In this document: piece by piece, positions 2,255 to 41,688 of the stretch
How positions within the stretch are numbered: position 1 is the stretch's first letter
How the letters are laid out: each line of letters starts with the position of its first letter
Assembly (NCBI GenBank): GCA_963717145.1
Contig: OY970325.1
Coordinates: 480,001 to 544,000, forward strand
Direction: 5' to 3'
DNA length: 64,000 nucleotides
Origin: an uncultured Armatimonadetes bacterium
GTDB lineage: Bacteria > Armatimonadota > UBA5829 > DTJY01
Translations under genes and position numbers: made by a program
The notes under the pieces: generated by a model
Seen by the model: only the letters and a program-made list of their open reading frames with translations
Told to the model about the DNA's origin: nothing
Database searches by the model: none

Positions 2255-2535
2255 AGGCGGGGGGGAATTTCGATTAGGCGACTGCTTTATTCAGTTTAGG
2301 CGGGGGGGAATTTCGATTAGGGCACTGCTTTATTCAGTTTAGGCGGGGGGGAATTTCGATTAGGGCACTGCTTTATTCAGTTTAGGCAGGGGGAATTTGG
2401 ATTAGGCCACTGCTTTATTCAGTTTAGGCGGGGGGGAATTTCGATTTGGCCACTGCTTTATTCAGTTTAGGCGGGGGGGAATTTCGATTTGGCCACTGCC
2501 TTATTCAGTTTAGGCAGGGGGGAATCTCGGTTTGG
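2255..2535. repeat. Tandem array, about 6.5 x 42-43 bp (underlying 21-nt period)
   Basis: Unit AGGCGGGGGGGAATTTCGATTAGGGCACTGCTTTATTCAGTTT starts at 2255, 2298, 2341, 2384, 2426, 2469 and 2512; no unique spacers. Confidence 0.95.
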
Positions 2536-2990
2536 GCACGGGGAAATATGAGCGTGGGCATCGGGAAATGGGCGTCCGGCGGGCGGAGAAAGACCACTCA
2601 GCGCCGGCCTGATCGAGCAGAGGTCGCGCCCCAGTCGAGCAACATCCCGGCCAAACCACAGCAGGGGTGGGGGATCATCGAACAAGGAAGCCCGACCCAT
2701 CGCCGTCCGCCTCGCCCCGACCAAACCCGCCGGCCTATGGAACTGAGGTCAGGAGCCGTGCAAGGCGAGGTGAATCCTATAGGGAAGACCCCGGCGGAAC
2801 CAAGAGGCGACTGTCCATCCTCCCTGTTACACTTGCATAGCCTGCAACTGGCAATAGGATTGGTCGCATGAAGGTTGTTGAGTCCCTTGCATCGAAAGGC
2901 TTTGCTATGGCATACTTGTGAGGATATGCCGTGAAGCTCGGACATGCGTTGATACTGCATGTCCTCGGTTCCGTGTTGTGCAGGTGCGAT

Positions 2991-5288
2991 ATGCCTAAGT
3001 TTACCGTAGACACACATCTTTTTCGAGAACTGGGCGAGCTTCTTGTCGGTCGTGATTCCACGGCTCTGGTTGAGCTCGTTAAGAACTCCTATGACGCCGA
3101 TGCCACCCATGTTCAGGTCTATGGCGAGAGTCTTGATACGCCCGAGAATGGCTTCATCATCATTCGCGATGATGGTGTTGGGATGAATTCCAGGCAGTTC
3201 GAGGAAGGATTCCTTCGTGTGGCGTCAAGGATCAAGAGCCATGGCGACCCAAGATCGCCTAGATTCGGGCGGCGATATACTGGCGCCAAAGGCATCGGCA
3301 GGCTGGCTGCTCATAAGCTCGCAAGATACATTGCCATAGAATCGTTTCCATGGACATCCACTGGCGACGATGCTGAACCCATCGATGCCAGAATTGACTG
3401 GGATATAGTTGAGGCGCACCAGAACTTGGACGAGCTGGAAGATTCAGATGCAATAACGCTGGCGCCCCGAGCCAGCGCCGAAGGCTCACAGCGCGGAACG
3501 ACGATCACTTTGTCCAGGCTTCGTCGTCGGTGGACATCTTCTGAGCGCTCACGATTCTTCACCGAGGTGACCAGTTTCACGCCACCTGAGCAACTTGTGA
3601 ACCTACCTGATGGTGTTACCGATGAGGATTTGCTCTTCCTTACACCACGGATATGTGACACCACCAGCAAGGATCCGGGTTTCACGGTTGAACTCCATGG
3701 TGAGCTACAGGCAGGTGAAGACTACTGGGTAGCCCTTGCCCAGACCGCAGACTGGCTCATCGAGATAGACGCTAGCCGCGATCATGATGGTGCTCCTGCA
3801 GGCGCATGCAAGGTACGATACAAGGTTACACCGACGAAGTTGACACGTAAAGACTTACGCAGTGCTCGGTCTCGTTTCTTTGAAATGGACCACCCTTCTG
3901 CTGACGACGGGCCATTCTTCCAAGCCCGAATCCTGATTCGCGAAGGTCATCTGGCGGAACAAGGACTCGACACCGGGTGGTTGACCAAATCCAATGGCGT
4001 TAGAGTCTTTATGGAAGGCTTCCGCGTACTACCGTACGGTGAGCCTGGCAATGACTGGTTGGAGATCGACCGAGGTTATTCACGACGGCAGAGGCAACTG
4101 GCATTCCTCAAGGATTTGCCTGTCGGGGTACCGATGGACGAGGATGAGGGACTGATGGCTCTGCGAAATGCCAACTATTTCGGGGCGGTGTTCCTCACTG
4201 AGGAAGACGCCCCTGGTCTTCAAATGCTGGTGAACCGCGAGGGCTTTATCCCCGAAGCCAGCTATGAGACATTGTGCACCCTGGTCCGCATCGGCATCGA
4301 TTTGTCGACGCGGGTAAGAGCCTACTTCGGTCGCGAGCATCGTGAGCTATGGAGATTGGAGCGAGAGATTCAGCCTGAGATCGAGGTCGAGCCCGTTCGT
4401 CGGCTGGAGCTTCGGGAGCAGATCGAGGCGTCGGTCAGAAGGGCAGCAGAGTTCGCGCAACAGGCTCGGATACAAGCAGCAGAAGGGGATTTTGGTTCAG
4501 CAATAGAGTATATCGACCAAGCCGCGGAGGAGTTCGCCTTGACGTCCGAGGCCTCCGAACGGCTGATGACCGAGCGGGCCCTGACGCAAGTTCTCGCTGC
4601 TGTTGGTCTGCAGATGGCGGCCTTCGTGCATGAGATCAATGCTCTGCTGGGAATGGCTAATACCTTGCAGGTTGCACTCGAAGCTATATCCAGGGACAGG
4701 GCGCTGCCTGCTTCTGCGAGGACTAGGATCGGACAGCTTGTGGGGTCGGTAGGGGACCTTCGACGGGCAATAGAGCGTCAGGCATCGTACCTAGTCGATG
4801 TTGTCTCCGCCGATGCTAGACGGCGACGGTCAAGGCAAAGAATGGCAGAGAGGTTTGACGCTAGTAGAAGACTCGTCCAAACTTCGGCGGACAGAAGGGG
4901 AATCGAGATTGTGAATGATATCCCGAGCGACTTCCGAACACCACCTATGTTCCCGGCTGAGGTCACCGTTATCTTTACCAACCTTCTGACCAATGCAGTC
5001 AAAGCCGCCGGTGATAACGGTCGAATCCATGCATCCGGCGTCAGAGATGGAGCCGTCCTGCGTATCCGGGTGGAGAACACTGGTGCGGCGGTACCCTCAT
5101 CGGAGGGCGAGAGGTGGTTCAGACCCCTTGAATCGACAACGACAGAGATAGATCCATTCTTGGGACAGGGAATGGGGATGGGTCTTCCGATCACCAGGAA
5201 TGTTCTGGCTGAATATGGGGCTACGGCCCGGTTTGTGGAACCGAGCCATGGCTATGCAACAGCAGTCGAACTCACCTTCAAGGAGTGA
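2991..5288 (+). CDS. GHKL (MORC/MutL-like) ATPase fused to C-terminal histidine kinase
   Basis: N-terminal ELVKNSYDADA, DDGVGM, GAKGIGR, GTTI; C-terminal H-box FVHEINA, N-box NLLTNAVKA, G2 box GQGMGMGL; start placed at MPKFTVD. Confidence 0.85.
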   Translation: MPKFTVDTHLFRELGELLVGRDSTALVELVKNSYDADATHVQVYGESLDTPENGFIIIRDDGVGMNSRQFEEGFLRVASRIKSHGDPRSPRFGRRYTGAKGIGRLAAHKLARYIAIESFPWTSTGDDAEPIDARIDWDIVEAHQNLDELEDSDAITLAPRASAEGSQRGTTITLSRLRRRWTSSERSRFFTEVTSFTPPEQLVNLPDGVTDEDLLFLTPRICDTTSKDPGFTVELHGELQAGEDYWVALAQTADWLIEIDASRDHDGAPAGACKVRYKVTPTKLTRKDLRSARSRFFEMDHPSADDGPFFQARILIREGHLAEQGLDTGWLTKSNGVRVFMEGFRVLPYGEPGNDWLEIDRGYSRRQRQLAFLKDLPVGVPMDEDEGLMALRNANYFGAVFLTEEDAPGLQMLVNREGFIPEASYETLCTLVRIGIDLSTRVRAYFGREHRELWRLEREIQPEIEVEPVRRLELREQIEASVRRAAEFAQQARIQAAEGDFGSAIEYIDQAAEEFALTSEASERLMTERALTQVLAAVGLQMAAFVHEINALLGMANTLQVALEAISRDRALPASARTRIGQLVGSVGDLRRAIERQASYLVDVVSADARRRRSRQRMAERFDASRRLVQTSADRRGIEIVNDIPSDFRTPPMFPAEVTVIFTNLLTNAVKAAGDNGRIHASGVRDGAVLRIRVENTGAAVPSSEGERWFRPLESTTTEIDPFLGQGMGMGLPITRNVLAEYGATARFVEPSHGYATAVELTFKE

Positions 5289-5294
5289 TCCCCA

Positions 5295-6437
5295 ATGCCA
5301 GCAACGAAGGTTCCGAGCATTCTCATCATTGATGACACCCTCTCGCAGGTGGAGGGGCTTGCTAATCTCATCAGAAGCGAGGGATTGGCGAAGGTGGTCA
5401 TATGTGATCCGGATGAGGTTAGCCGCCTTGACGTGTTGAGGGCTGACTTAGTGCTGATTGACTATGATATCGCAAAGTGGCGCAAGGGTATTGAGCCGGG
5501 TGAGATCATCAGTCAGCAGCCCGGGAATGGACTCGCGCTGGTTCCCGTCTTAAGAAGCCACATAAAGCGGAAGGTTCAGCCAACCGCCTACGCCATACTG
5601 ACCGGTAAGATGGACGAACTGGCCGATCCTCTCCCATCTGAGTATCGCAACCATGCGCTGGCCAGCATAAACAACCTGGAGTGGATCTTCGAGAAATCCT
5701 CCCCCGGAGACGAACCACGATTATACCAGCAGATCGCTGAACTGGCTGCTGCTGTCAGGAGGCTCCCGCGGGGATGGACGCCATATTCTGATCGAGGCTC
5801 TGCAGAGCAGTTGGCAGGATTACTGGGACTTAGCCTGGGTACCGACGAGTCTGACGAGCTCATGCAGGATGTTCTTCGCTGCCATCCTCCGCTCTATGAG
5901 CTGTCGGAATGGAGTCACGGTCTAACTATTCTGCGATGGTTGCTCCACAGGATCCTGCCTTATCCGTGTTTCCTACTGGATACCAACTACCTCGCTGCTC
6001 GCCTTAGACTGCAGCATGCCGGACTGGAGAGCGCACTTCAGGTCGGATGCCCGCTTCGAAAGGCTCTAGCCCCCTATGAATATGATGGCATCCTACCTAC
6101 GTTTCTGGGCGGTCGATGGTGGCGAATGGGGGTAGAGAGGTTTCTATGGAACAAAACTGGGGGTATGTCTTTCGACATAGCGAGTGTCCGCAGGTTGGTA
6201 AATGCCCTGGCAGGGGAGGAGCTTCCGCCCAGTACTCCAGATGATTTTCCTGTAGTCTGCATCGGCGCCAGATACGAGTCCATGAAGGAGTTCTGCTCAA
6301 TCGATGAAGCCGTGCGGATTCGCCCAGATGATTGGCCTGCGTACGCTGAGCAAGCATGGACGACTCTGGAGCTTGCGAACGAGGAAACGAAGCTGAAGGC
6401 CCTTGTCATCGAAGAAGATAGAGAGAGGCTTGGTTGA
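5295..6437 (+). CDS. Response-regulator receiver domain with long unknown C-terminal domain
   Basis: ILIIDD, VLIDYD, ILTG and FEK receiver signature; directly follows the kinase. Confidence 0.8.
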   Translation: MPATKVPSILIIDDTLSQVEGLANLIRSEGLAKVVICDPDEVSRLDVLRADLVLIDYDIAKWRKGIEPGEIISQQPGNGLALVPVLRSHIKRKVQPTAYAILTGKMDELADPLPSEYRNHALASINNLEWIFEKSSPGDEPRLYQQIAELAAAVRRLPRGWTPYSDRGSAEQLAGLLGLSLGTDESDELMQDVLRCHPPLYELSEWSHGLTILRWLLHRILPYPCFLLDTNYLAARLRLQHAGLESALQVGCPLRKALAPYEYDGILPTFLGGRWWRMGVERFLWNKTGGMSFDIASVRRLVNALAGEELPPSTPDDFPVVCIGARYESMKEFCSIDEAVRIRPDDWPAYAEQAWTTLELANEETKLKALVIEEDRERLG

Positions 6438-7213
6438 TGCTAGTGGAACAGCCTTCTCCTCTTCAACTCAAGTTCTCGTTTTCGGGGATCAAGGACGAGA
6501 TCCAGACCATGAGGGAACTGGCCTCCAGATTCATCACCCCGCAGTCTGCTAGTGTACTTCGGGAGTGGCAGCAGCAACTCGAGGGTATCCAGGCAAACCG
6601 ACCCCAGAAGCCACAGCATTGGTGCATAAGCCCAGAACACCCCATAGAGACGATTCCGAGCCAGGGCCAATACGAACGTGGCGCAAGAAAGGCTGCGACT
6701 GTGCGAGGGGTTCTTACCGCGAAATGGACAGTTCTGGTGTCTCCCGTACAAGGCAAGAAGTCGCTGAAGCCAGAGAGGTTCCTCGTAGTGGGCATAGCCT
6801 CGACCAAGATCCAGATATACCATTCCGACGGGCGAGAACTGGCGAGGTGGCGCTTTGAGATAGGACTGGGCCCCAAAGCTCCAGGATGTCGTTTCCATAC
6901 ACAGGTACTGGGCGAGAATAGTGATACTGTGTTCCCTAAGCTTCTGCCCGTGCCACGTCTGCCGTCCATATTGGTGACTCCAATGGAGAGCTTGGATTTC
7001 TTACTAGGGGAGTTGTTCCAAGACGACTGGCATTTCCGGAGCACATCGGAAGCTGCTCGTATGGCAGCATGGGGTAACAGCCATCGCGAGCGGGTAAGAA
7101 GACTGCTGAACTGGCATCTTGATGCTGTCTGTGGCAGTTCAGGTAGCGCTTGGACAGCCATTAAGAAACATACTTTGAACCAGGACGCGCTTGTGGAGGG
7201 ATCGAATAAGTGA
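6434..7213 (+). CDS. Uncharacterised protein in defence operon (possible DUF2290-like effector)
   Basis: 4-bp overlaps with both neighbours; RFE...FHTQ...PRLP...P.E.LDFLL pattern. Confidence 0.7.
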   Translation: MMLVEQPSPLQLKFSFSGIKDEIQTMRELASRFITPQSASVLREWQQQLEGIQANRPQKPQHWCISPEHPIETIPSQGQYERGARKAATVRGVLTAKWTVLVSPVQGKKSLKPERFLVVGIASTKIQIYHSDGRELARWRFEIGLGPKAPGCRFHTQVLGENSDTVFPKLLPVPRLPSILVTPMESLDFLLGELFQDDWHFRSTSEAARMAAWGNSHRERVRRLLNWHLDAVCGSSGSAWTAIKKHTLNQDALVEGSNK

Positions 7214-8799
7214 TCCTACCTACTCCACCTGAATCCTGTAAGGTCTACACACCTCCTGCACTGGCCGATGCCATAGTTCGTTCCCTAGGTGATGCTCCAG
7301 ACGCTAGATGGCTCGAGCCCAGCGCCGGAGGTGGTGTATTCGTGTCAGCGGTGTCCCAACTGGGAGTGGAGCGTAACCACATCTGTGCCATAGACATCGA
7401 CAAGTGCTGCGGTCCGCATGATGGTCTTGCCATCGTCTTTCGAGGGCAGGATTTCGTGAGATGGTCACTTGACACTACACAGCATTTCGACAGGATAGTC
7501 GGCAATCCCCCTTATATTCGCCTCTGTCGGCTCGAGGAGTCGCTGAAGAACGCGGCATTGCGTGTCACGGAGCCTGATGGCAGTCCTATGCATCTTGGCG
7601 TGAACTACTGGCATGTGTTTGTATGCGCGTGCCTTAAGATCCTCAATCCTGGCGGTTCTCTGGCATTGGTGCTTCCCGCGTCATGGGATTACGCTGACTA
7701 CTCTGCTCCTCTCAGGTGTACGTTGCCCAAGCTCTTCCGAAGCGTTGTAGTCCACAGAAGCTTGCGACCACTGTTCGGCACGGTTAGCGATGGATCAGTC
7801 GTCCTGATCGCCAAGGGATACAGAGAGCAGTCAGAACACTATGCTCGCCATGTGCATGCAGACTTGCCTGCTCTCATCAAGGCGCTTGAGGTGGGAGAAC
7901 ACGATCTGGTAAGTACTGGTTCGCAGACCGAGCAGGAAGATGCTGGTGAGGAGCTTGTCACCCTTGGCGACATCGCTGACATCGTGATCGGAGCCGTCAC
8001 GGGCGATGCGAAGTACTTTCTTCTGACGGAGCAACGGCGCTTGGAGCATAAGCTCCCGGAGAGTTGCTGCAAGCGGATTCTCACTCGTGCCCGCCAGCTT
8101 CGGGGCGGCGAGGTCTCCCTTGATGATTGGAGGCAGCTCAAGGACGGAGGACACCGAGTCTGGCTGTTTTCTCCACCGGACGATCTTCTGGCCAATGATG
8201 CGGTACATGCCTATCTTGAGTTGTCCACAGACAAGGAGGGACCCAACAAGGAAGCGTATTGGCTGCAGAAGCGTGATGAGTGGTATAGAGTTGAACTGCC
8301 ACTGGAGGCGCATGGATTCATGAGTGGGATGCGCAGTACCGGCCCCTGGATGTGTATGAACCGCTCACCCGAGCTTACAGCTTCCAACACGCTCTACATT
8401 GTCAGATTCCGAGAAGATATCACTGAGGGTGAGCGCTATGCCTGGGCCCTATCCATGCTTACGTCTCCAGTCGCCGCACAGTCGGCGCAATCCTGTCGGC
8501 TCTATGCCGATGGGTTGAGGAAGTTCGAGCCAAGCGACCTGAAGAGGCTGAGGTTGCCGAAGCCACTGCGCTCTGAGGGAGCTAGAGGGGCATATGTACA
8601 GGCGGTTTCCCATCTGCTGAGCGATGGGCCTGTTTGGGCACGAGAGATCGCGGATCAGTGGTTCGCCGTGCAAAGCCGCCTGAGTGATCTGGCTCTCTCT
8701 AGGGAAGCGCAGATGGACCGGGTTGCTGAATCAAAGGGCACCTACCAGACGAGACTGCACGAGGATGGCCCGGTCGTTGCGACGGATATTCGTTCCTAG
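7210..8799 (+). CDS. N6-adenine DNA methyltransferase (gamma class, Eco57I/TaqI-like)
   Basis: VYTP, LEPSAGGGVF (motif I), IVGNPPY (motif IV), TRD-like C-terminus. Confidence 0.9.
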   Translation: MILPTPPESCKVYTPPALADAIVRSLGDAPDARWLEPSAGGGVFVSAVSQLGVERNHICAIDIDKCCGPHDGLAIVFRGQDFVRWSLDTTQHFDRIVGNPPYIRLCRLEESLKNAALRVTEPDGSPMHLGVNYWHVFVCACLKILNPGGSLALVLPASWDYADYSAPLRCTLPKLFRSVVVHRSLRPLFGTVSDGSVVLIAKGYREQSEHYARHVHADLPALIKALEVGEHDLVSTGSQTEQEDAGEELVTLGDIADIVIGAVTGDAKYFLLTEQRRLEHKLPESCCKRILTRARQLRGGEVSLDDWRQLKDGGHRVWLFSPPDDLLANDAVHAYLELSTDKEGPNKEAYWLQKRDEWYRVELPLEAHGFMSGMRSTGPWMCMNRSPELTASNTLYIVRFREDITEGERYAWALSMLTSPVAAQSAQSCRLYADGLRKFEPSDLKRLRLPKPLRSEGARGAYVQAVSHLLSDGPVWAREIADQWFAVQSRLSDLALSREAQMDRVAESKGTYQTRLHEDGPVVATDIRS

Positions 8800-15339: not shown

Positions 15340-16233
15340 ATGAACAAACGACTGATACTCATTCCTATCGTCATCATCCTCGCGGGCGTCCTGGGATACG
15401 CCGCGGTCTCGTACCATTCGAGTCATGCTCAGCCGGTGACACAGGAGCCGGCGGCGTCCAAGCAGATGGCAGCGGGGGAGCCGTCGCCGGGTGATCGTCA
15501 GGGGGGGCCGATGTCCATGAACCCCGAGGCCGTTCCCAAGGCGGATGAAGGCAAGGGGAAGCCCTCCAAGATGAAGCCGAACGACGGCCAGAAGAAGGCT
15601 CAGAAGGGGAAGCCGGGCCAGGATGCTTCCGCATTCCGTCAGCAGCACAAGCAGATGTTCGGGCTCATGAATACCTTCCTCGCCCTGGCTGCCATAGAGC
15701 GAGGCGGGAAGAGCACGCTCACTCCTGTTCAGGCAAAGCAGGTCCTGAGCATTATGACCCCACTGAAGGCTCAGCCAAAGCTCACCGAGGCGGAGGCGGG
15801 GAAGACTCTCGCCAGGCTGAACAAGATTCTCACCGCCGATCAGTTGAAGGCCATGTCGGCGTTCAAGTCCCCGGGCAGGAACGGGCAGAAGCCGGATCAG
15901 CGGCAGCACGCCGGTCCGCCTCCGGGAGCGACCGGACAGAGACCACCGCAGGGCGCGCCGCCTCCCGGTCAGGATGGAATGCGCCGGCAGGGACCTCCTC
16001 CCGGTTCGCCTCCGAGGGTCGCCGGGCAGAAGCCTCCTCAGGGCGCGCCGCCTTCCGGTTCGCCGCCTCGAGTGCCCGGTCAGCAGCAGGGACCACAGTT
16101 CGATCCGGCAGCGATGAATGATTTCAACCCGTTCTACACCGGAGCACCGACCGGCGGAGGAGCGGGTCCGGCGATGGGCAAGCGCATGGAACGGTTCTTC
16201 GATGCATTGAAGAAGAAGGCCGGAGTATCTTAG
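15340..16233 (+). CDS. Exported Pro/Gln/Gly-rich protein (Spy/CpxP-like LTxxQ motifs)
   Basis: N-terminal TM/signal, LTPVQAK and ILTADQLK, QRPPQGAPP repeats. Confidence 0.75.
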   Translation: MNKRLILIPIVIILAGVLGYAAVSYHSSHAQPVTQEPAASKQMAAGEPSPGDRQGGPMSMNPEAVPKADEGKGKPSKMKPNDGQKKAQKGKPGQDASAFRQQHKQMFGLMNTFLALAAIERGGKSTLTPVQAKQVLSIMTPLKAQPKLTEAEAGKTLARLNKILTADQLKAMSAFKSPGRNGQKPDQRQHAGPPPGATGQRPPQGAPPPGQDGMRRQGPPPGSPPRVAGQKPPQGAPPSGSPPRVPGQQQGPQFDPAAMNDFNPFYTGAPTGGGAGPAMGKRMERFFDALKKKAGVS

Positions 16234-16938: not shown

Positions 16939-18597
16939 ATGAGATTCACCGACATTTTGCTGCTTATACTGCTGGCCGGAAGCCTGATCGGTTCCGCCGG
17001 CGCTGAGAAGATCTACCTGAACCCCAGCGATCAGATCCACAACATGAGTCCCGACGGTACATACTGCGAGGCCGACGGTATGAAGGATGTCGGACGGAAG
17101 CTCGAGGCCAAGCTCAAGGCGCGCGGCTTCGAAGTCCAAAACTCGGACGGCGGGACGATGAGGGAAGCGTGCGACGCGGCCAACGCCTGGCCCGCGGACA
17201 TCTTCATCTCCCTGCACTCCAACGCCGCCGGAAGCAAGAACTCGGGCAAAGCGCACGGGACCAACACGCTCTACTACTTCCCGCGCGACGGTCGGGAGCC
17301 GAACCCGATCAGTATCAAGCTCGCCCTGCTCTGCGATGAGAAGGTCGTCGAGAAGATGACCACCTACGGACGCGGGCACAACTTTGCCGTCACCGCTGAC
17401 TTTCCGTTTCTGCCCTATAACCTCTATGTGCTGCGCAGGACGAACATGCCCGGCACGCTTGTCGAGGGCCTCTTCCACGACAACGAGGAAGACACCGCCG
17501 TGCTCAAGACCGAAGAGGGCAGGGATGCCTACGCCCAGGGCGTCTACGAGGCGCTCTGCGACTACTTCGGAAAGAGTTACTATCCGGATGCGCCGATCCT
17601 CGATCCCGTCGGCCCGGTGGCGAATGACTCGACCGGCAACCTCGCCCTCGTGGTTCGTGGTGAGAAGGGGAATGCGACGCTCGTCCGCCAGACCGGCATC
17701 AACGCCAGGTGGTCCGCCCAGTCGATCGACCTGGAGGGCAACATCTCTGGCGAACCCGTGATTGCTCGGAACCCTCAGGGCCGCCTGCATGTATTCGCTC
17801 AGGGCCCCGGAGGCCGTGTCTGGCACAAGGTTCAGGCAAAGGTCGGGAGCGATCGGTGGAACGGCTGGTATGACCTGAGAGGCACTGCGTCGGGTGATCC
17901 TGTTGTTGCCAGGTATGCCGATGGACGGCTCGTCGTCTTCGCGGTAGGTTCGGACGGCCATCTGCGGTACAAGGCTCAGCGCTCCGTGAACAGCGGACTG
18001 CAATGGGATGAGTGGAACGATCTCGGCGGACAGGTGATCGGAAAGCCGTCGGTCTGCCGTGGAGCGGACGGGCAACTGGTCGTCGCCTGCAGAGCGCCCG
18101 AGAGAGGCCTGATCGTTGCCACCCAATCGGGTGATGAATGGACGGTTCGGAACGATCAGGATGACGTCGTGGCTGGCGATCCAGTCGCGGTGATGGATCG
18201 GATCTTCTGCCTCGGACCGGATGGGCATGTCCTGAGCAGGACGGGAGCGGCCTGGCAGGATCTCGGCGGATCGTTCGTCGGGAGCCCGGTGGTCGGCGTC
18301 GGTACGGACGGGGTGCTCGAGGTCTTTGCGCTCGATGGTCAGGGCGCGGTTTCGCATAGCTCGCAGGGATCGGATGGCTCATGGACGGGCTGGCAGTCCC
18401 TCGGCGGCACATTCAGCAGCACTCCGATCGTTGGCAGGAACCTGGACGGCCGCATCGAACTGCTCGCGCGCGCGTCTGACGGGAAGATGCAGTACCGAAT
18501 CCAGCGCGAGCCCGGGAAGAGCGCCATCTGGGACGGCTGGTACACGGTCGGCGAGTACTTCACCGCCACGGTGAGGGAATATCCTGCGGCTCAGTGA
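16939..18597 (+). CDS. N-acetylmuramoyl-L-alanine amidase (Amidase_3) with C-terminal lectin-like beta-propeller repeats
   Basis: FISLHSNA, LYVLR, LVEGLFHDN; W.DLGG / RNxDGRLELFA repeats; signal peptide. Confidence 0.85.
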   Translation: MRFTDILLLILLAGSLIGSAGAEKIYLNPSDQIHNMSPDGTYCEADGMKDVGRKLEAKLKARGFEVQNSDGGTMREACDAANAWPADIFISLHSNAAGSKNSGKAHGTNTLYYFPRDGREPNPISIKLALLCDEKVVEKMTTYGRGHNFAVTADFPFLPYNLYVLRRTNMPGTLVEGLFHDNEEDTAVLKTEEGRDAYAQGVYEALCDYFGKSYYPDAPILDPVGPVANDSTGNLALVVRGEKGNATLVRQTGINARWSAQSIDLEGNISGEPVIARNPQGRLHVFAQGPGGRVWHKVQAKVGSDRWNGWYDLRGTASGDPVVARYADGRLVVFAVGSDGHLRYKAQRSVNSGLQWDEWNDLGGQVIGKPSVCRGADGQLVVACRAPERGLIVATQSGDEWTVRNDQDDVVAGDPVAVMDRIFCLGPDGHVLSRTGAAWQDLGGSFVGSPVVGVGTDGVLEVFALDGQGAVSHSSQGSDGSWTGWQSLGGTFSSTPIVGRNLDGRIELLARASDGKMQYRIQREPGKSAIWDGWYTVGEYFTATVREYPAAQ

Positions 18598-18603
18598 GTG
18601 AGC

Positions 18604-18633
18604 GTTGGGGAGGGACTGCAGTCCCTCCCCAAC
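18604..18633. repeat. Perfect palindrome between convergent genes (REP-like / bidirectional terminator)
   Basis: GTTGGGGAGGGACTGCAGTCCCTCCCCAAC. Confidence 0.75.
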
Positions 18634-18656
18634 TTCGGTCATTCAGCAGCAAACGC

Positions 18657-20165
18657 TCAGCTCTCCGGCACGTAACCGTCGGAGAAGCACTTGAGGAAAG
18701 CGACCAGCGCGTCGACCTCCTCGTCGGTAAGCCCGAGGTTGCCGTATCCTCCCGTGCGGAAGATGTTGGGATGATCAACTTCCGGCGGTCCCCATCCGGC
18801 CCCCGGAACGTCGCGAGTGTTGTAGAACTGGATTACGGTCTTCAGGTTGTCGAAGACTCCGTTGTGCATGTAAGGTGCTGTCTTGGCCACATTCCGAAGG
18901 GACGGGACCTTGAACTTGCCCAACTCCTCGTTCGCACCAAAGGTGCCACGCTGCATCAGCATTCCTCCGAGACCGAGGTCCACCCAGTCGAAGCCCCAGG
19001 GGTTTAGACTTCGATGCAGGGTGTAGAAAGGATTGTCCGGGTTCGCAGGTACTCCCACGTTGAAGTACCCGTGATTCGTGAAGAGGGGCATGCCGTTCCA
19101 CGTCCCACCGGGCGCGCAACCACAGTCACATCCCATGCCGCAGTTGCACACTCCGGTCCACGCGCATCCGCACGGGCAGTCTCCCTCGCAGACCTGCGGG
19201 GTGCTCGGGCATCCGCACTGGCAGCCCGGGCCGCACTTGCAGACGCCGGTGAACGCGCATCCGCAGGCGCACCCGCCTGCGCAGGTGTTCGCATCGGTCT
19301 GCAGGCATCCGCAGTCGCACCCGGGTCCGCAGGTGCAGACGCCGGTCACCGCGCATCCACACTTGCAGCCGTTCTCACAGGCGACTTGGCCCTTCTGCGG
19401 GCAACCGCAGGTGCAGCCCGGTCCGCATGTGCAAACGCCGGTATACACGCAGCCGCACTTGCATCCGCCGGAACACTCCCGACCCGTCGTGGTTCCGGTG
19501 AAGTGGCACATCGTGCAGCCGCCCTTGCCGTGGAAGATCATCATGCCCATGCGTTCCATCGGCGTGAAGTCCGCCTCTCCGGCCATGACGGCATCGACCT
19601 TCGCGGTGAAGGGGTTCACTTCCGACGACCGCTCGTAAGCCGCGATCGCATCCGCCATATGGTCGAAGGCGCGGTCAACCGATATGAGGGCGTAAGCGCC
19701 GTACACAGTTCGGAATAGCGGGGCATAGGACGCGCTCCTGACACTGTACACCGCGTACCTTTTGCCCGGATTGCTCATCTCAAGTGGATTCAGGAGCGGG
19801 CCCTTCGCCTGCTCCACGAGATTGCTCGCGCGGCCGTCCCAGAACGTGCCGCCGGCATATCCGCCGTTGTATTTCATAAGCTTCTGGGGGCCTCCAATTG
19901 CGTAGGAAGCCTGAGGTGAGTTCCGATTCCCGAACCGGTTCGTAAGCGCCCCCGCGGAGGTGGGGCAATCGGTTCGCGGATCCGCGAACCCCGTGGATGG
20001 CGAGTGGCAAGTCGCGCACGATACTTTCGCCGGCCTGGACAGGTCTGTGTCGAAGAAGAGCTGCTTACCGAGTTGTTCCTTCGGTGTCAAAGCTGCTCCG
20101 AGTGTTCCGGCGAGGATGAACGTGACCGCGATGGTCACGCAGAGGATGTTGAGAGCATTCCTCAT
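18657..20165 (-). CDS. Diheme cytochrome c peroxidase (bCcP/MauG superfamily) with Cys-rich insertion
   Basis: LGKQLFFD, SCATCH, RNSP, FWDGRA, QAKGPLLNPLEM, CTMCH, FKVPSLRNVAKTAPYMHNG; signal peptide. Confidence 0.9.
   Translation of the reverse strand: MRNALNILCVTIAVTFILAGTLGAALTPKEQLGKQLFFDTDLSRPAKVSCATCHSPSTGFADPRTDCPTSAGALTNRFGNRNSPQASYAIGGPQKLMKYNGGYAGGTFWDGRASNLVEQAKGPLLNPLEMSNPGKRYAVYSVRSASYAPLFRTVYGAYALISVDRAFDHMADAIAAYERSSEVNPFTAKVDAVMAGEADFTPMERMGMMIFHGKGGCTMCHFTGTTTGRECSGGCKCGCVYTGVCTCGPGCTCGCPQKGQVACENGCKCGCAVTGVCTCGPGCDCGCLQTDANTCAGGCACGCAFTGVCKCGPGCQCGCPSTPQVCEGDCPCGCAWTGVCNCGMGCDCGCAPGGTWNGMPLFTNHGYFNVGVPANPDNPFYTLHRSLNPWGFDWVDLGLGGMLMQRGTFGANEELGKFKVPSLRNVAKTAPYMHNGVFDNLKTVIQFYNTRDVPGAGWGPPEVDHPNIFRTGGYGNLGLTDEEVDALVAFLKCFSDGYVPES
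19116..19475 (-). repeat. Four tandem ~31-32-aa 9-Cys metallothionein-like repeats inside the peroxidase
   Basis: C-x3-C-x-C-G-C-x2-TGV-C-x-CG-x-GC-x-CGC, 4 copies = 36 Cys in 120 aa. Confidence 0.95.
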
Positions 20166-20308
20166 CGAGTGGTCTCCTTTCCTGCAGATGATGAAGGGTA
20201 GTGCTTACCCCGCAGGCCGTTTACCCGTTTTGTGGAACGGACAAACGCTAAGGAGACCAGTAATCGCAGATTTCCATTGAGCGTGGAGAAGACACATGCG
20301 GAAGCGCG

Positions 20309-21088
20309 TTACTCGGCCACTAACTGGTGTTCCCTGGTGAAGAACTGCCGGTAGCTCCAAAGTGCGGCGGCGAGACTTGCCACGGTCACCGCGGCGGTGA
20401 TCATGTAGACGACCACGATCTGGTATCTCACCGCCTCGGTCGGCGACTGGCCTGCGATGATCTGCCCGGTCATCATCCCCGGCAGCGAGACTATGCCGAC
20501 GGTCATCATCGAGTTGATGTTGGGGATCATGGCTGCCTTTGCCGCCGCCTTGAGCGCGGGATCGGCGGCCTGGCGCGATGTCGCCCCGAGTGCGAGCGCG
20601 GTCTCGATCTGCAGCCGACGGAGCTTGATCTCCGCCGAGATTCGGTTCATCGCCAGCGACGCGCCGTTCATCGAGTTGCCGAGAATCATACCAGAGATAG
20701 GGATGACGTACCACGGAGACGCCTCGATGATCCCGAGCCCCACGAGGATCGCGAGCGTCCCGAGCCCTCCGATGCCGACCGACAGTACCGCGATCCACTT
20801 CGCGCCCGGGATGTCCTTCGACCGCTGAGCCGCGGTGTAGCCCGCGACGGCGGTCATCACGGCGAGGGTGAGCAGCACCCAGTACCACTTGTCGGCGCGG
20901 AATATTCCCTCGAGCACATATCCGACCGCCATGAGTTGCACGAGCGAGCGGATCGTGCCGACCAGCAGGTCCTTCTCCAGCCCGAGCCGTTCGAGCCGCG
21001 AGAGCACGACCGTGATGACGATCAGTACCAGCGCGACTCCGAGTTCCCCGTAGCTGATCTCCGCGTAGTTATGGGCGTCAACCATCAA
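20309..21088 (-). CDS. fetB: ABC transporter permease, UPF0014 (FetB/YbbM-like)
   Basis: RSLVQLMAVGYVL, IPISGMILGNSM, LALGAT, GIVSLPGMMTGQI, AVRYQI. Confidence 0.85.
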   Translation of the reverse strand: MMVDAHNYAEISYGELGVALVLIVITVVLSRLERLGLEKDLLVGTIRSLVQLMAVGYVLEGIFRADKWYWVLLTLAVMTAVAGYTAAQRSKDIPGAKWIAVLSVGIGGLGTLAILVGLGIIEASPWYVIPISGMILGNSMNGASLAMNRISAEIKLRRLQIETALALGATSRQAADPALKAAAKAAMIPNINSMMTVGIVSLPGMMTGQIIAGQSPTEAVRYQIVVVYMITAAVTVASLAAALWSYRQFFTREHQLVAE

Positions 21089-21133
21089 CCATCCGCTCCC
21101 CCATCAACCATGAACCATCAGCCATCAACCATT
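21078..21133. repeat. AACCATC heptamer tract at the fetA/fetB junction
   Basis: tcaacca tcaacca ... tcaacca tgaacca tcagcca tcaacca. Confidence 0.75.
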
Positions 21134-21856
21134 TCCCCCCAGCTTCCCCTCGATGAACATCCTCGCGGTCTCCGTCTGCGGATTGGCGAAGAACTCCTCC
21201 GTGATGCCCTCCTCGATATTCTTGCCGCCGACGAGAAGCATCGTCCGAGTGCCGATTCGCTCCGCCTGCTCCATGTCGTGCGTCACGAAGACGATCGTGA
21301 GCCCGTCGTCGCGGTTCATCTTGAGAGCCAGGTCCTCGATCTGAGTCTTGCTCGCGGGGTCGAGGGACGAGGTCGGCTCGTCCATGAGCAGGATTTCCGG
21401 GCCGGTTGCGAGCGTGCGGGCGATCGAGAGCCGCTGCTGTTCGCCGCCGGAAAGACTGCTCGCCGTCCGGGATGGGAAGTCCTCGGGCAGGCCGACTCGT
21501 CGAAGCAGTTCCGCTGAATCGATCTTGATCCCTGCGAGCTTGGCTCCGTACTGGAGGTTGTCATCCACTGTCCCGTCGAACACGACCGGTTTTTGGAAGA
21601 CCATCCCCGCGCGCCGACGAAGCGCCAGGACGTTCATCGACCGAGTCTCCGTCCCATCGAGCAGGATCCGGCCCGAGGTCGGATCGTCGAGGCGGTTGAT
21701 CAGCCGGAGGAGGGTGCTCTTTCCCGAGCCCGACGGGCCGAGGATCGTGAACACGTCGCCCGCCTGGACCGAGATCGAGACGTCGGACAGGATCGTGACG
21801 GGCTGTCCGCCGTTCGTCCGCTTGGTTATCGACTCCAGTCGCAGTCTTTCATCCAT
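21125..21856 (-). CDS. ABC transporter ATP-binding protein (FetA/YbbL-like)
   Basis: GPSGSGKST, LSGGEQQR, LLMDEPT; adjacent to the UPF0014 permease. Confidence 0.9.
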   Translation of the reverse strand: MDERLRLESITKRTNGGQPVTILSDVSISVQAGDVFTILGPSGSGKSTLLRLINRLDDPTSGRILLDGTETRSMNVLALRRRAGMVFQKPVVFDGTVDDNLQYGAKLAGIKIDSAELLRRVGLPEDFPSRTASSLSGGEQQRLSIARTLATGPEILLMDEPTSSLDPASKTQIEDLALKMNRDDGLTIVFVTHDMEQAERIGTRTMLLVGGKNIEEGITEEFFANPQTETARMFIEGKLGGNG

Positions 21857-21860
21857 TAGG

Positions 21861-23156
21861 CTACTTTGGTGCGCCGTCGGTGGTCGTGTCGGCCTTCTTG
21901 TCGATGACGAAGGTGTCGATCGGCGTGCCGTCCTGGTTCATGGTGCGCACGGTGAGCTTCATGTCGTTCACCTCGACGACGAGGTAGTTCGGCTGCTTCA
22001 GCGGGTTGAAGAAGAACGCGTCCCACGCCCGCTTGCTGAGGTTCTTGTAGGTCTTCTCGCCGCTCCTGCCGGTGACGAAGTAGATCGTCCCCTCCGAAGG
22101 TTTCGACATGTTCTTGCCATCATTGATCGGCCAGGTCCGACCGACGCCGTGATCGTGGCCGTTGAAGACGAGGTCGGCGTGATCCTTCTCCAGCGTCGGA
22201 CAGAATGCCGCCCGGAGTTCCTCGTTCGACCGACCGTCCTTCACCTCATAAGGCGCCTTGTGGAAGAATACGATCTTCCAAGTCGCGTTGGATGCCGAGA
22301 GGTCGGCGTCCAGCCATTCCTGGAGGGCGGGGAGGCCGTCGCCCTTCGCCTTCTCGCTGTCGAGCACGGTGAGATGGACGCGCCCGTAGTCGTAGGAGTA
22401 GACGCGGCTCTTCAGGCCCTCCGGCCCGTTCTGCGGCACGGGGAACTGCCTGGTCGTGTACGACGGCCCGCCTCCACCGGCGTACTCGTGGTTGCCCAGG
22501 ACCGGCATCTCGGGGATCGAGTCGATCACCCCCGTTGTCGCCGCGAACCAGCAGTTCCAGTGCTCGGCGCTCTGCCCGGTGTTGACCATATCGCCGACGT
22601 TCACCATGAACTTCGCGGTGGGATTCGCCTCGTAGGCGTTATGCACGGTCGTCCGCCACTTGCCGTAGGGCGCATCGCCGGATGTGCTGCTCTGACTGTC
22701 GCCGAAGACGAGGAACTTGAACGCGCGCGGCTTGGGAGCGGCGGTCGTGAAGCTGTGGGGCTCGCCCCACTGATCGCCATTGCCGACGCGGTACGTATAC
22801 TTCGTGTTCGGTGAGAGACCGGTGAGGGCTGCCGTGAAGAGCCGGTACTGCCCCTTGTCGGTGTCGAAGTCGGTCGCGGTCGCCTCTGCCTCCCTCCCGG
22901 AGAGACTGGATCCTCTCGTGTAGACGACTGCGCCCGATGTCGCGCCGGTATCGGTCCGCCAGGTGATCGTCATCGTCGTCGCCGGATCGCCGGTCCATGT
23001 GAGGGTGACGTGATCCTGGATGGCCGTCGTGGTCGCGCCGGGACTCCCAATCGTGACGGTAGTCGTATCCGTGCTCGCACTCGTGCGCTCGGACGAACCG
23101 ATCGGGGCGAGTGCCATCAGAAGGATCAGCGCTGTCCATACGTATATTCTTCTCAT
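21861..23156 (-). CDS. Purple acid phosphatase-like metallophosphoesterase with FN3 N-domain
   Basis: GDSQ, GDMV, GNHE, FFH, GHDH motifs; signal peptide MRRIYVW. Confidence 0.9.
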   Translation of the reverse strand: MRRIYVWTALILLMALAPIGSSERTSASTDTTTVTIGSPGATTTAIQDHVTLTWTGDPATTMTITWRTDTGATSGAVVYTRGSSLSGREAEATATDFDTDKGQYRLFTAALTGLSPNTKYTYRVGNGDQWGEPHSFTTAAPKPRAFKFLVFGDSQSSTSGDAPYGKWRTTVHNAYEANPTAKFMVNVGDMVNTGQSAEHWNCWFAATTGVIDSIPEMPVLGNHEYAGGGGPSYTTRQFPVPQNGPEGLKSRVYSYDYGRVHLTVLDSEKAKGDGLPALQEWLDADLSASNATWKIVFFHKAPYEVKDGRSNEELRAAFCPTLEKDHADLVFNGHDHGVGRTWPINDGKNMSKPSEGTIYFVTGRSGEKTYKNLSKRAWDAFFFNPLKQPNYLVVEVNDMKLTVRTMNQDGTPIDTFVIDKKADTTTDGAPK

Positions 23157-36184: not shown

Positions 36185-36373
36185 ATGCCCAGAAACCCAG
36201 CTTGGACTCGTGAGGAACTGATACTTGGCTTCGGCCTCCTATACCGCTCCAACCTCATCCTTGTACGAGGCAGGCCCTCAGAGATCATTCACCCTGATGC
36301 TGGTGGGCAGAGATCGGCATGTCAAGAAGTGGACCGCGTGTGGAAGGGGGTAAGCAGCATTGCGCAAGCATGA
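36185..36373 (+). pseudogene. N-terminal remnant of an McrA-like HNH restriction endonuclease
   Basis: MPRNPAWTREELIL...Y resembles the RNPxWTRDELILALDLY start of that family; similarity lost after about 21 aa. Confidence 0.5.
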
Positions 36374-37982
36374 CAACACTCCCAACGCAGCTCGAACGTT
36401 AGATGCGCTCCGCAGCGTCGGCTATGATTTCAATGCCGCTGTCGCCGATCTTGTAGACAACAGTATTGCGGCGGGTGCTGTGAACGTATGGGTGTTCTTC
36501 TACAGGTCAGGCGACGACTTCAGATTGAGGATTGTTGACAACGGCCGGGGCATGACTGCGGATGCGGTAAAGGAAGCCATGCGTCTTGGCACAGAGACTA
36601 CCTATGAGCAAGGAAGCTTAGGCAAGTACGGGTTCGGCCTGAAGACTGCATCGATCAGCCAGTGTCGCAGACTCACAGTATTGTCGCGAGCCAAACGCGA
36701 CCAGGAGTATCATGGCTTCACACTGGATATAGACGAGGTGCATAAGTCCAACCAATGGGAGATCACCGAAACATCAGCCGGAGACATCGGCAAGTATGTT
36801 GAGACTCGAATGGTTCCGAGTGGCACCGGCACGTCGGTACTCTGGGAGAAGATCGATCGCCTTGCCGAGGAGTACAATTCATTCCAGCGAGAAGGTGCTG
36901 CAGATAACTGGGTTGGCCGAAAGCTTGATGAACTCAAACAACACCTAAGCATGGTCTTCCACCGCTTCCTCGACGGATCAGCGGAAAGACGCAAGCCACT
37001 TGTGATCAGCTTCAACGGAAACAAGCTTGTCCCCTGGGACCCCTTCTGCACTGCCGAGCCAAACACAAGACGGTTACACGAAAAAGCCTTCATTCCACGC
37101 GAGCATGGATGCAGTGCCCCGGTCCGCGTGAAACCGTACATACTGCCGGTTAGAGAAGGTCCCGGAGGCTTCTCTTCCAGACAAGCCTGGGAGTCGGCCG
37201 CTGGGCCGCTCAAGTGGAATGATTCTCAGGGATACTATGTATACCGTGAAGATCGCCTGATACATTTCGGGGGCTGGCTATGGACGAGGGCAAAGGACGA
37301 GCATGTCAAATGCGCGCGAGTGGCTTTGTTGTTTCGCTCGGAACACGATGACGCATTCGAGATCTCTGTGAACAAGGTGCAAGTGAAGCTTCCCGCGAGT
37401 CTTCGGGAGTTCCTTGTAAACGAGGTGAACCCGGAGGTCGTGAAGATCGCGAACGAAACGTACCGTGGAAGTGCCCGTGGAGGCGATACAGGCAACCGCC
37501 ACAAGCGCTCAAGCCAAGTTGTGAAGAGCACTGCTCCCACGGCTATGCAGGAAGACCGTGTGAGTGTCCAGCCTAATGGCGCGGGCCATATCGAGGTGCA
37601 CAATCCCAAGGGAAGATTCGTCCTGAACCCAGAACGAGATACCATCGATATGGGTCTCCAGCGTTTTGAGATAAGAACAGGCGTTGTTGAGGACGGCGCT
37701 GTCTGGAAACTGGTTGGCACCCCTGAATGCGGGTTTGCGGTGATTCTCAATAGCGACCACCCGTTCTACCAGCTTGCATACGAAAACGGCAAACCGACGG
37801 CAGCTCTTACCATATTGCAGGATGCGCTTCTCTGCGCTATGGCCTATGCCGAGCTTCGATGTGGGTCAACAGGTAATCTGAGCTTGTTCAATGAGATTCG
37901 ACATGCGGTGTCGCAATTCTTGGAAAAGTGGACTGCCGATGCTCTGCAGACGACGCCACTCTCGAGTAGGAAGTCATCATGA
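36360..37982 (+). CDS. MORC/MutL-like GHKL ATPase (MzaB-like)
   Basis: LRSVGYDFNAAVADLVDNSIAAGA, DNGRGM, LGKYGFGLKTAS, GT, QGYYVYR..RLI..GGW, EISVNK. Confidence 0.9.
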   Translation: MRKHDNTPNAARTLDALRSVGYDFNAAVADLVDNSIAAGAVNVWVFFYRSGDDFRLRIVDNGRGMTADAVKEAMRLGTETTYEQGSLGKYGFGLKTASISQCRRLTVLSRAKRDQEYHGFTLDIDEVHKSNQWEITETSAGDIGKYVETRMVPSGTGTSVLWEKIDRLAEEYNSFQREGAADNWVGRKLDELKQHLSMVFHRFLDGSAERRKPLVISFNGNKLVPWDPFCTAEPNTRRLHEKAFIPREHGCSAPVRVKPYILPVREGPGGFSSRQAWESAAGPLKWNDSQGYYVYREDRLIHFGGWLWTRAKDEHVKCARVALLFRSEHDDAFEISVNKVQVKLPASLREFLVNEVNPEVVKIANETYRGSARGGDTGNRHKRSSQVVKSTAPTAMQEDRVSVQPNGAGHIEVHNPKGRFVLNPERDTIDMGLQRFEIRTGVVEDGAVWKLVGTPECGFAVILNSDHPFYQLAYENGKPTAALTILQDALLCAMAYAELRCGSTGNLSLFNEIRHAVSQFLEKWTADALQTTPLSSRKSS

Positions 37983-41649: not shown

Positions 41650-41688
41650 TCCTGGGGTACGGGATCGCCGTATTGATGATTCGGAGGT

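Follow-up and report, generated by a model that had tools for sequence, protein, structure and literature searches.

What does a block of 36 cysteines do inside an exported heme enzyme? The question arises from one gene in a 64-kb stretch of DNA from an uncultured Armatimonadetes bacterium (contig OY970325.1), analysed here as a whole and called the window. The gene encodes P0001, a protein that the initial annotation described as a di-heme cytochrome c peroxidase carrying four tandem metallothionein-like domains. MauG-type enzymes are known for the long-range oxidation of separate proteins, and the known role of metallothioneins is to buffer metals as free proteins of the cytosol. A conserved and exported fusion of the two types, with the metallothionein-like part at the electron-entry face of the enzyme, would be a new link between the sequestration of metals and peroxide chemistry in the cell envelope. 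The enzyme scaffold is already known, and the insert is an orphan module seen so far in six sequences. We suggest that the insert forms a reduced thiolate domain for a soft metal, probably Cu(I), which is coupled to the six-coordinate heme of a MauG-type enzyme. We assign this reading a probability of roughly 40%.

The cysteine-rich repeats replace a short surface loop. The motif C-x3-C-x-C-G-C-x2-TGV-C-x-CG-x-GC-x-CGC matches P0001 exactly four times, just as initially read after the heme motif CTMCH, and 36 of the 43 cysteines of the protein fall within these 120 aa (residues 231-350). The insert begins 5 residues after His221 and its first repeat 10 residues after the second CxxCH, and the ordinary family sequence LFTNHGYFNVGVP picks up again at residue 361, also as first described. 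Conservation and loop lengths were assessed in an alignment of 81 homologues (A3; 79 rows cover the N-terminal positions), in which the loop at this site is usually short (12 aa in 51/81) and the insert is absent from 75 sequences. The insert consists of 28% Cys and 22% Gly, with 20 CxC motifs, no CC and no His. Aromatic residues are scarce (5 in the 140-residue loop), with one per repeat and none in repeat 2. Each module carries 9 Cys in about 31 residues, and 9 is the Cys count of the three-metal beta domain of metallothioneins. Of the 21,911 host-genome frames between stop codons that span at least 100 aa, only the P0001 gene and one other frame, judged to be repeat-derived and non-coding, reach 13 Cys in a 40-aa window, which far exceeds what chance would give. 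The next-highest count is 11. The densest Cys stretches in protein-like host frames after P0001 are the tails of two predicted membrane proteins, one of (CA)n type, CACACACAGCACACAC, and one of (ACHS)n type (G000:C1, about 2125488-2125607 and 2955501-2955620, both on the minus strand).

The fusion is conserved well beyond the window. The same four-repeat insert is found in six distinct sequences (P0001, P0002/L095, P0003, P0004, L096 and L097), which makes five in addition to the one first noticed. Three of these are metagenome loci (L095, L096 and L097), and L095 corresponds to P0002 with one residue changed. The insert-bearing DNA spans 51-63% GC, and the GC content of the insert in the window gene rises to 0.69. 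In all six sequences 35 of the 36 insert Cys are invariant; the last Cys is replaced by Asp in L096, which retains 35. Non-Cys positions vary between orthologues and between repeats (68-80% amino acid identity), and the linkers that follow the first three repeats differ from repeat to repeat but are conserved across orthologues. A Phe in repeat 3 and a Trp in repeat 4 are invariant as well. The repeats of the window gene are 67-75% identical at the nucleotide level with many synonymous differences, and the duplications are old, as this limited identity shows. The Nei-Gojobori rate of nonsynonymous substitution (dN) is 0.15-0.21 in the insert compared to 0.20-0.30 in the flanking catalytic parts, with the insert lower in 5/6 pairs. 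The ratio to the synonymous rate (dN/dS) is 0.07-0.18 where dS is unsaturated. The early suggestion that the cysteines are retained by selection is hence well founded. An avoidance of CxxC by the insert was considered and dropped, as the motif is missing from P0001 and P0002 but occurs 1-3 times in each of the other four sequences.

Relatives of the repeat outside of these proteins were searched for in several ways. The insert alone matched no Pfam family at E <= 10, metallothionein families included, and the ESM Atlas returned no usable match. A phmmer search of 1.84 billion representatives yielded four matches at E <= 0.001, of which one is P0003 in the insert's own cluster, and no stand-alone relative was found among these representatives. 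The other three (P0121, P0122 and P0123) were rejected on inspection as unrelated low-complexity repeat proteins. P0121 (359 aa) is another Cys-repeat fusion, with about eleven CD(P)DCDCGCKSN repeats before a non-repetitive C-terminal part. A scan of genome contigs with full-length P0001 recovered 80 loci and no insert; seven loci with spans of 2.0-2.2 kb were translated and encode ordinary CCP-family proteins with a short loop, and the other 73 were judged from spans of at most 1.15 kb. In 41 related genomes, a CCP-family match was found in 13 and the insert in none. Among sequencing runs, one DNA run was listed, with a 0.06 share of the sequence words, and no RNA run. Searches of the open-access literature found no account of a Cys-rich or Met-rich fusion of MauG or bacterial cytochrome c peroxidase (bCcP), and the impression of an unfamiliar but real fusion held up, given the six sequences that carry it.

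Whether the insert should be called a metallothionein depends on the definition. Its 36 Cys in 127 residues agree with the operational one (about 30% Cys in CxC/CxxC-type motifs with few aromatic residues or His). It is not a small free protein, being internal to an enzyme of 502 aa, and belongs to no described metallothionein family. Judged by its sequence, the insert is metallothionein-like in composition only. The initial comparison is therefore apt for the 9-Cys modules with CxC motifs and for the composition, and fails for family membership. Tandem arrays of Cys-rich modules are known from the multidomain metallothioneins of snails and the Cu-metallothioneins of Cryptococcus/Tremella, where concatenation multiplies capacity. 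Snail domains bind 3 Cd each and tandem repeats raise the capacity of the fungal proteins, according to the accessible portions of PMC7084494. The insert resembles these proteins in its 28% Cys, its CxC motifs and its few His and aromatic residues, and has no sequence relation to them; it is bacterial, exported and placed inside an enzyme, and its metal binding is putative.

Exported bacterial copper storage is exemplified by Csp1, a Tat-exported four-helix bundle which holds many Cu(I) on Cys thiolates and has no enzyme attached. The P0001 insert differs in being Gly-rich, without predicted helices and within a Sec-type cytochrome c. In the AlphaFold2 model of the whole protein, the predicted local distance difference test (pLDDT) is below 50 for residues 225-347, and values range over 36-45 in context and alone. 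Modelled by itself, the insert has short pairs of beta-strands and no confident fold, and its pLDDT of 36 is too low to carry meaning. Low pLDDT and the composition of the insert together fit a metal-dependent fold.

The enzyme itself is best described as MauG-type, with predicted Tyr/His ligation, and not as a canonical bCcP, which revises the class name first given. Two CxxCH motifs and a CCP_MauG domain (PF03150; 2e-34, 119.8 bits, cut-off 25.6 bits) place P0001 in the bCcP/MauG superfamily. Among solved structures MauG matches best (PDB 3L4M and variants; E 5.7e-63), followed by BthA (6NX0; 1e-34), the best classical bCcP (1.7e-24) and MbnH (6E1C; 4e-23). The core of the AlphaFold2 model has a pLDDT of 85-98, and Foldseek likewise ranks MauG on top (TM score 0.83-0.84 on the target) with the same order of structures as by sequence. 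Residue equivalences were taken from the HMMER alignment to MauG. Tyr448 corresponds to Tyr294, His221 to His205 and Trp109 to the inter-heme Trp93. The distal pocket (Gln119/Pro123/Glu129) corresponds to Gln103/Pro107/Glu113, and the Ca site (Asn82/Thr429/Pro431) to Asn66/Thr275/Pro277. Residue roles follow the BthA paper (PMC6405878), PDB variant titles and general knowledge of the family. The sections of PMC6405878 available describe the Tyr-His six-coordinate heme, the inter-heme Trp and the Ca site. In the A3 alignment, C and H of heme motif 1 are kept in 79/79 covering rows, heme motif 2 is invariant (81/81), and the axial Tyr is found in 71/81 rows, with the bCcP-type ligand Met (PYMHNG) kept in only 51/81. 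Five of the inter-heme, pocket and Ca-site positions were counted and are similarly conserved (W109 74/79, Q119 77/79, P123 79/79, E129 79/79, P431 81/81). Heme 1 of P0001 is, by this alignment, the predicted equivalent of the five-coordinate, H2O2-reactive heme of MauG.

P0001 appears nevertheless distinct from the characterised members of the superfamily. Scores stay below the equivalog cut-offs for MauG (TIGR03791; 99.2 bits, cut-off 443.85), MbnH (TIGR04039; 111 bits, cut-off 362.85) and the His-Xaa-Ser-associated enzyme (82 bits, cut-off 340), and the surface Trp199 of MauG is also missing. For these reasons P0001 is likely neither MauG proper nor MbnH nor a His-Xaa-Ser-associated enzyme. 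The Trp199 position reads K214-G215-G216 in P0001, and the A3 columns there hold K, G/A and N/K/G, with Trp not among the most frequent residues. MauG of Paracoccus denitrificans shares with P0001 the two c-hemes and the residues listed above, but has a loop of about 10 residues where P0001 carries the 127-aa insert. BthA of Burkholderia thailandensis likewise has a Tyr/His six-coordinate heme, is MauG-like and has no assigned substrate; it differs in lacking the inter-heme Trp and the Ca site and in having two Cys near the six-coordinate heme rather than 36. The methylamine dehydrogenase light chain (PF02975) was unmatched in a search whose control was also silent. No MbnP-like neighbour turned up beside the P0001 gene, whose neighbours are a FetAB-like pair and an amidase, though no search was aimed at MbnP. 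The host genome encodes a second CCP_MauG paralogue without the insert (G000:C1:5207354-5208181, plus strand, 370-aa frame), which is 39% identical to P0001 over the N-terminal domain. The clade around P0001 is large, MauG-like and uncharacterised, with 6129 relatives at E <= 0.001 among 8000 candidates scored, from bacteria and Methanosarcina-type archaea. The names that class-level relatives bear point to Armatimonadota as the probable phylum of the host.

The same loop has been filled with another soft ligand in sister proteins. Eight of the 81 A3 homologues (P0013, P0022, P0024, P0033, P0039, P0046, P0095 and P0109) have Met/Gly-rich inserts of 19-48 residues, such as (MGGGG)n or GGMMGGMGGMGG, in the loop after the second heme His. 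Such inserts are also found at nine of the 56 genome loci that could be parsed out of 80 fetched (L102, L132, L134, L137, L149, L152, L166, L178 and L180), the loop pattern having failed on the other 24. A second loop, between Pro93 and Gly105 before FWDGR, has Met- or Cys-containing segments in many relatives. In a tree built from 339 columns with both variable loops left out, the six proteins with the Cys insert fall into a single clade (support 0.98). Its sister group (support 0.99) includes P0013, the loop of which consists of (MGGGG)6 followed by a C-x4-C-x-C-G-x-C motif. By parsimony the Cys insert arose once and the Met-rich inserts have at least four origins. In the copper oxidase CueO, a Met-rich domain beside the type-1 copper recruits Cu(I), as reported in the accessible parts of PMC11494321 and PMC12041951. 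The same parts present this domain as a flexible loop of soft ligands that covers the site where electrons enter this periplasmic oxidase, a situation similar to the Met/Gly loops in the sisters of P0001. CueO is a multicopper oxidase using O2, in contrast to P0001 with its heme pair, Cys ligands and presumably H2O2 as oxidant. Met-rich loops at the same site lend the copper link some independent support.

The position of the insert suggests how it could communicate with the hemes. The surface Trp of MauG, which relays holes to the protein substrate, sits directly before the same CxxCH (W199 variant titles in the PDB; PMC11951088 as far as its available text goes), and the insert would for this reason emerge at the electron-entry face of the heme pair. 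We suggest that the enzyme is exported by the Sec pathway and that H2O2, or O2 plus electrons, would react at the five-coordinate N-terminal heme, with the oxidising equivalents shared with the Tyr/His-ligated six-coordinate heme. The Gly-rich module of four times 9 Cys, in place of the normal 12-residue loop after the His ligand, would be kept reduced in the host envelope and would fold around soft metals as thiolate clusters. Cu(I) is the most likely metal, with Zn or Cd possible. As in a tandem-domain metallothionein, the capacity could be some twelve divalent ions, as a very rough estimate, or a larger number of Cu(I). With the module tethered where electrons enter, its Cu(I)-thiolate might be electronically coupled to the enzyme, and oxidising power derived from peroxide might be spent on the metal-thiolate domain or gated by it. 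This could lead to oxidation and release of Cu(I), or to the safe consumption of H2O2 beside sequestered Cu(I), avoiding Fenton-type chemistry. Fe-S cluster binding by the insert was set aside, as the signal is Sec-type without a twin-arginine and c-type heme attachment would need an unfolded export substrate.

Copper handling has precedents among related enzymes and some echoes in the genomic record. MbnH/MbnP and CorB/CorA of methanotrophs involve MauG-like di-heme enzymes tied to copper handling, as proposed for P0001, but the partner there is separate, Trp-rich and has a single Cu site, compared to a fused thiolate-rich domain here. MbnH reaches a bis-Fe(IV)-type state, and kynurenine is made at the Cu site of MbnP (PDB 6E1C title; PMC11951088, within the portions available). 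At L095, the Cys-insert gene lies between two C-terminal fragments of multicopper oxidases (HCH..H..M motif), followed by a c7-like multiheme cytochrome (L095:1-315, 1930-2415 and 2446-3762); the second fragment, about 100-160 aa of frame, may be a remnant. At L134, the gene directly upstream of a Met-rich homologue encodes a heavy-metal P-type ATPase that has an HMBD domain, and at L166 a P-type ATPase lies 2.6 kb upstream of another. The link to copper handling proposed at the outset has the Met-rich sister loops and the multicopper-oxidase neighbours of one homologue in its favour.

The inventory of the host concerns the redox state of the insert. Profile searches in all six frames of its genome (a single contig of 5.37 Mb, 98% complete) found no match to DsbB, VKOR, DSBA, Thioredoxin_4 or Cu-oxidase_2, each of which was matched in control genomes. 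The same genome has two CcdA/DsbD_TM genes and two open reading frames (ORFs; 815 and 871 aa) whose twin HMA domains are characteristic of CopA-type pumps. From these profiles, the host envelope seems to be equipped with a reducing pathway and with efflux of the copper type, and with no recognisable disulfide oxidase or cuprous oxidase.

Several points weigh against a Cu(I)-thiolate domain. That the insert binds metal at all is something we infer, and the insert matches neither metallothioneins nor any other Pfam family. Its low pLDDT may reflect the six-sequence alignment alone. The missing Dsb families are a negative from profile searches, and air could still oxidise the many thiols of an exported domain in a host that has no Dsb system. 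The Met-rich loops might serve instead as antioxidants that are sacrificed beside a high-valent heme. Among the 28 window ORFs scanned with Pfam, no copper or other metal gene was found besides the FetAB-like pair, and that adjacency is not conserved, given that the fetAB of the related genome G008 has other flanking genes and G008 has no MauG-like gene. Metal-related neighbours occur at only one of the three metagenomic homologue loci, with unrelated neighbours at L096 and L097. P-type ATPases are near only two of the nine Met-rich loci, both from Thiomicrorhabdus and hence to be counted once, and the other seven show nothing metal-specific.

The alternative that fares best, though we consider it unlikely, dispenses with metal. 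The 36 thiols would act as a built-in reductant, or redox capacitor, oxidised to disulfides by the high-valent hemes with up to 18 H2O2 consumed per fill. A CcdA-fed periplasmic thioredoxin would re-reduce them, making P0001 a heme-dependent thiol peroxidase without a cytochrome partner. Such a relay agrees with the insert's position on the face where electrons enter the six-coordinate heme, and the two CcdA/DsbD_TM genes and the lack of a detectable Dsb oxidase are explained equally well. Long-range oxidation of protein side chains is known for MauG-type enzymes, and close to the six-coordinate heme of BthA lies a conserved disulfide at the surface, for which a regulatory role has been proposed (both as stated in the available text of PMC6405878, the former also in that of PMC11951088). 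The invariant Trp of repeat 4 and Phe of repeat 3 could serve as relay residues, and the Met-rich sister loops could be a Met/Met-sulfoxide analogue. What speaks for bound metal instead is the rigid register of the cysteines. A relay would have no need for 36 Cys in CxCxC/CxC spacing with 22% Gly, and it is metal-thiolate clusters that typically have this spacing. Metals are also suggested by the multicopper oxidases and the heavy-metal ATPase found beside homologues, and Pfam scans of the window found no adjacent gene for a dedicated reductase.

Exported Cys-rich repeats are commonly disulfide-bonded, and the insert might be a purely structural module with about 18 disulfides. It would then be a rigid stalk or shield that covers the six-coordinate heme and serves stability, the exclusion of partners or attachment to a surface, without binding metal or taking part in redox chemistry. 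The short beta-strand pairs in the model of the insert alone could be taken in this sense, at their meaningless pLDDT. Nine Cys per repeat is, however, an odd number, and L096 has lost a single Cys. The host lacks matches to DsbA, DsbB, VKOR and Thioredoxin_4, the loop has almost no hydrophobic core with its 5 aromatics in 140 residues, and sister lineages fill the loop with Met/Gly, which cannot cross-link. We regard a disulfide-knotted structure as improbable.

Slightly more improbable again is that the insert is a substrate in cis, with the hemes modifying the tethered domain (e.g., Trp336, Tyr or Cys-aromatic cross-links) into a mature cofactor or metal site. The models are MauG with its substrate preMADH, and MbnH, which turns a Trp of MbnP into kynurenine at a Cu site (PMC11951088, in the parts available). 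No separate substrate gene is conserved beside the enzyme in the metagenome loci or in non-insert orthologues, and the repeat-specific invariant Trp and Phe and the nearly invariant Tyr also speak for it. Against it, there is a single aromatic per repeat and none in repeat 2, the dominant conserved feature is Cys and not Trp, and searches of the open-access literature found no MauG-type enzyme with a fused substrate. Finally, a functionless low-complexity expansion or the assembly chimera considered in the initial annotation is excluded for practical purposes, despite a loop that tolerates many insertions across the family and the high GC of the insert, by six independent sequences of the same architecture in DNA of differing GC, 35/36 invariant Cys, a dN below that of the catalytic domains and the single-contig host genome.

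The Cu(I)-thiolate reading of P0001 can be extended to its relatives, with due reserve. It is a rather doubtful but testable idea that the widespread MauG-like clade consists of periplasmic enzymes that oxidise Cu(I) at the expense of peroxide or otherwise handle it, in which the loop beside the six-coordinate heme would recruit the substrate and was built repeatedly from soft ligands, several times from Met/Gly and once with 36 Cys. If true, the Cys form would be a natural chimera of enzyme and metallothionein, with Cu(I)-thiolate wired to a heme pair capable of a bis-Fe(IV) state. The chimera would do the job of CueO in an organism with CopA-like pumps and no multicopper oxidase. The recurrence of Met-rich loops would provide a Cu(I)-handling hypothesis for a large clade of proteins annotated as cytochrome c peroxidase in bacteria and archaea. 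The 31-residue module with 9 Cys is an orphan candidate for metal binding, with possible use in bioremediation or as a protein-engineering tag.

The FetAB-like transporter noted initially just upstream on the same strand is indeed present (Table 1). Both genes are called no more than FetAB-like because the NCBIfam equivalog cut-offs are not reached (FetB 206 bits, cut-off 410; FetA 152 bits, cut-off 292), though the UPF0014 match is strong. Among 11 genomes of the family, fetB is found only in the host (G000) and in G008. A role of FetAB as functional partner is weakened by the non-conserved adjacency, based on one relative with fetAB and one homologue with visible upstream DNA. Non-insert orthologues in related genomes have no common neighbours. 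A promoter and terminator scan of 18400-22100 detected no terminator-like site between the fetB-like gene and the P0001 gene and no minus-strand promoter-like site, and is uninformative. The neighbours of the Cys-insert gene at L096 (1199-1672 and 1666-2268) are a siroheme-decarboxylase-like AsnC/NirDL protein and an opposite-strand frame which, read by eye, resembles glutamate-1-semialdehyde aminomutase, both of which belong to heme synthesis.

Table 1. Features of the P0001 gene and its upstream neighbours (window positions).
Feature	Position	Strand	Basis and remarks
P0001 gene, exported MauG-type di-heme protein (predicted), 502 aa	18657..20165	-	ORF and translation, Pfam, MauG match
Shine-Dalgarno-like AAGGAG, 8 nt before ATG	20174..20179	-	direct reading
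Probable Sec signal peptide, residues ~1-25, no twin-arginine	20091..20165	-	MRN, hydrophobic stretch, probable cleavage between GAA and L as read from the sequence; AlphaFold2 helix 2-20
Heme motif 1 CATCH, residues 50-54	20004..20018	-	aligned to MauG C31-H35
Heme motif 2 CTMCH, residues 217-221	19503..19517	-	alignment to MauG; His221 = MauG His205
Cys-rich insert, residues 226-352, 127 aa	19110..19490	-	composition; 36 Cys, 28 Gly, 0 His
Repeat 1, residues 231-255	19401..19475	-	regular-expression match; aromatic-position Tyr in 5/6 orthologues
Repeat 2, residues 263-287	19305..19379	-	regular-expression match
Repeat 3, residues 295-319	19209..19283	-	regular-expression match; AFTG invariant in 6/6 orthologues
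Repeat 4, residues 326-350	19116..19190	-	regular-expression match; Trp336 invariant in 6/6 orthologues
Tyr448 codon	18822..18824	-	aligned to MauG Tyr294, axial ligand of six-coordinate heme
FetB-like permease (UPF0014), 143 nt upstream of P0001 gene	20309..21088	-	Pfam 2.4e-82
FetA-like ABC ATPase	21125..21856	-	Pfam ABC_tran 4.7e-34

Elsewhere in the window, a group of plus-strand genes at 36360-43317 encodes HATPase_c_3, a Z1 domain, DUF4420 (PD-(D/E)XK-like) and a C-5 cytosine methylase, and resembles an island of restriction or defence genes. Possibly a second defence locus lies at 2931-8796 on the plus strand, with a double-HATPase protein, two ORFs without a Pfam family and an Eco57I-like methylase. 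At 15340-16233 on the plus strand, a protein of 297 aa without a Pfam family combines an N-terminal hydrophobic segment with Pro/Gly/Gln-rich repeats of GQKPPQGAPP-like sequence.

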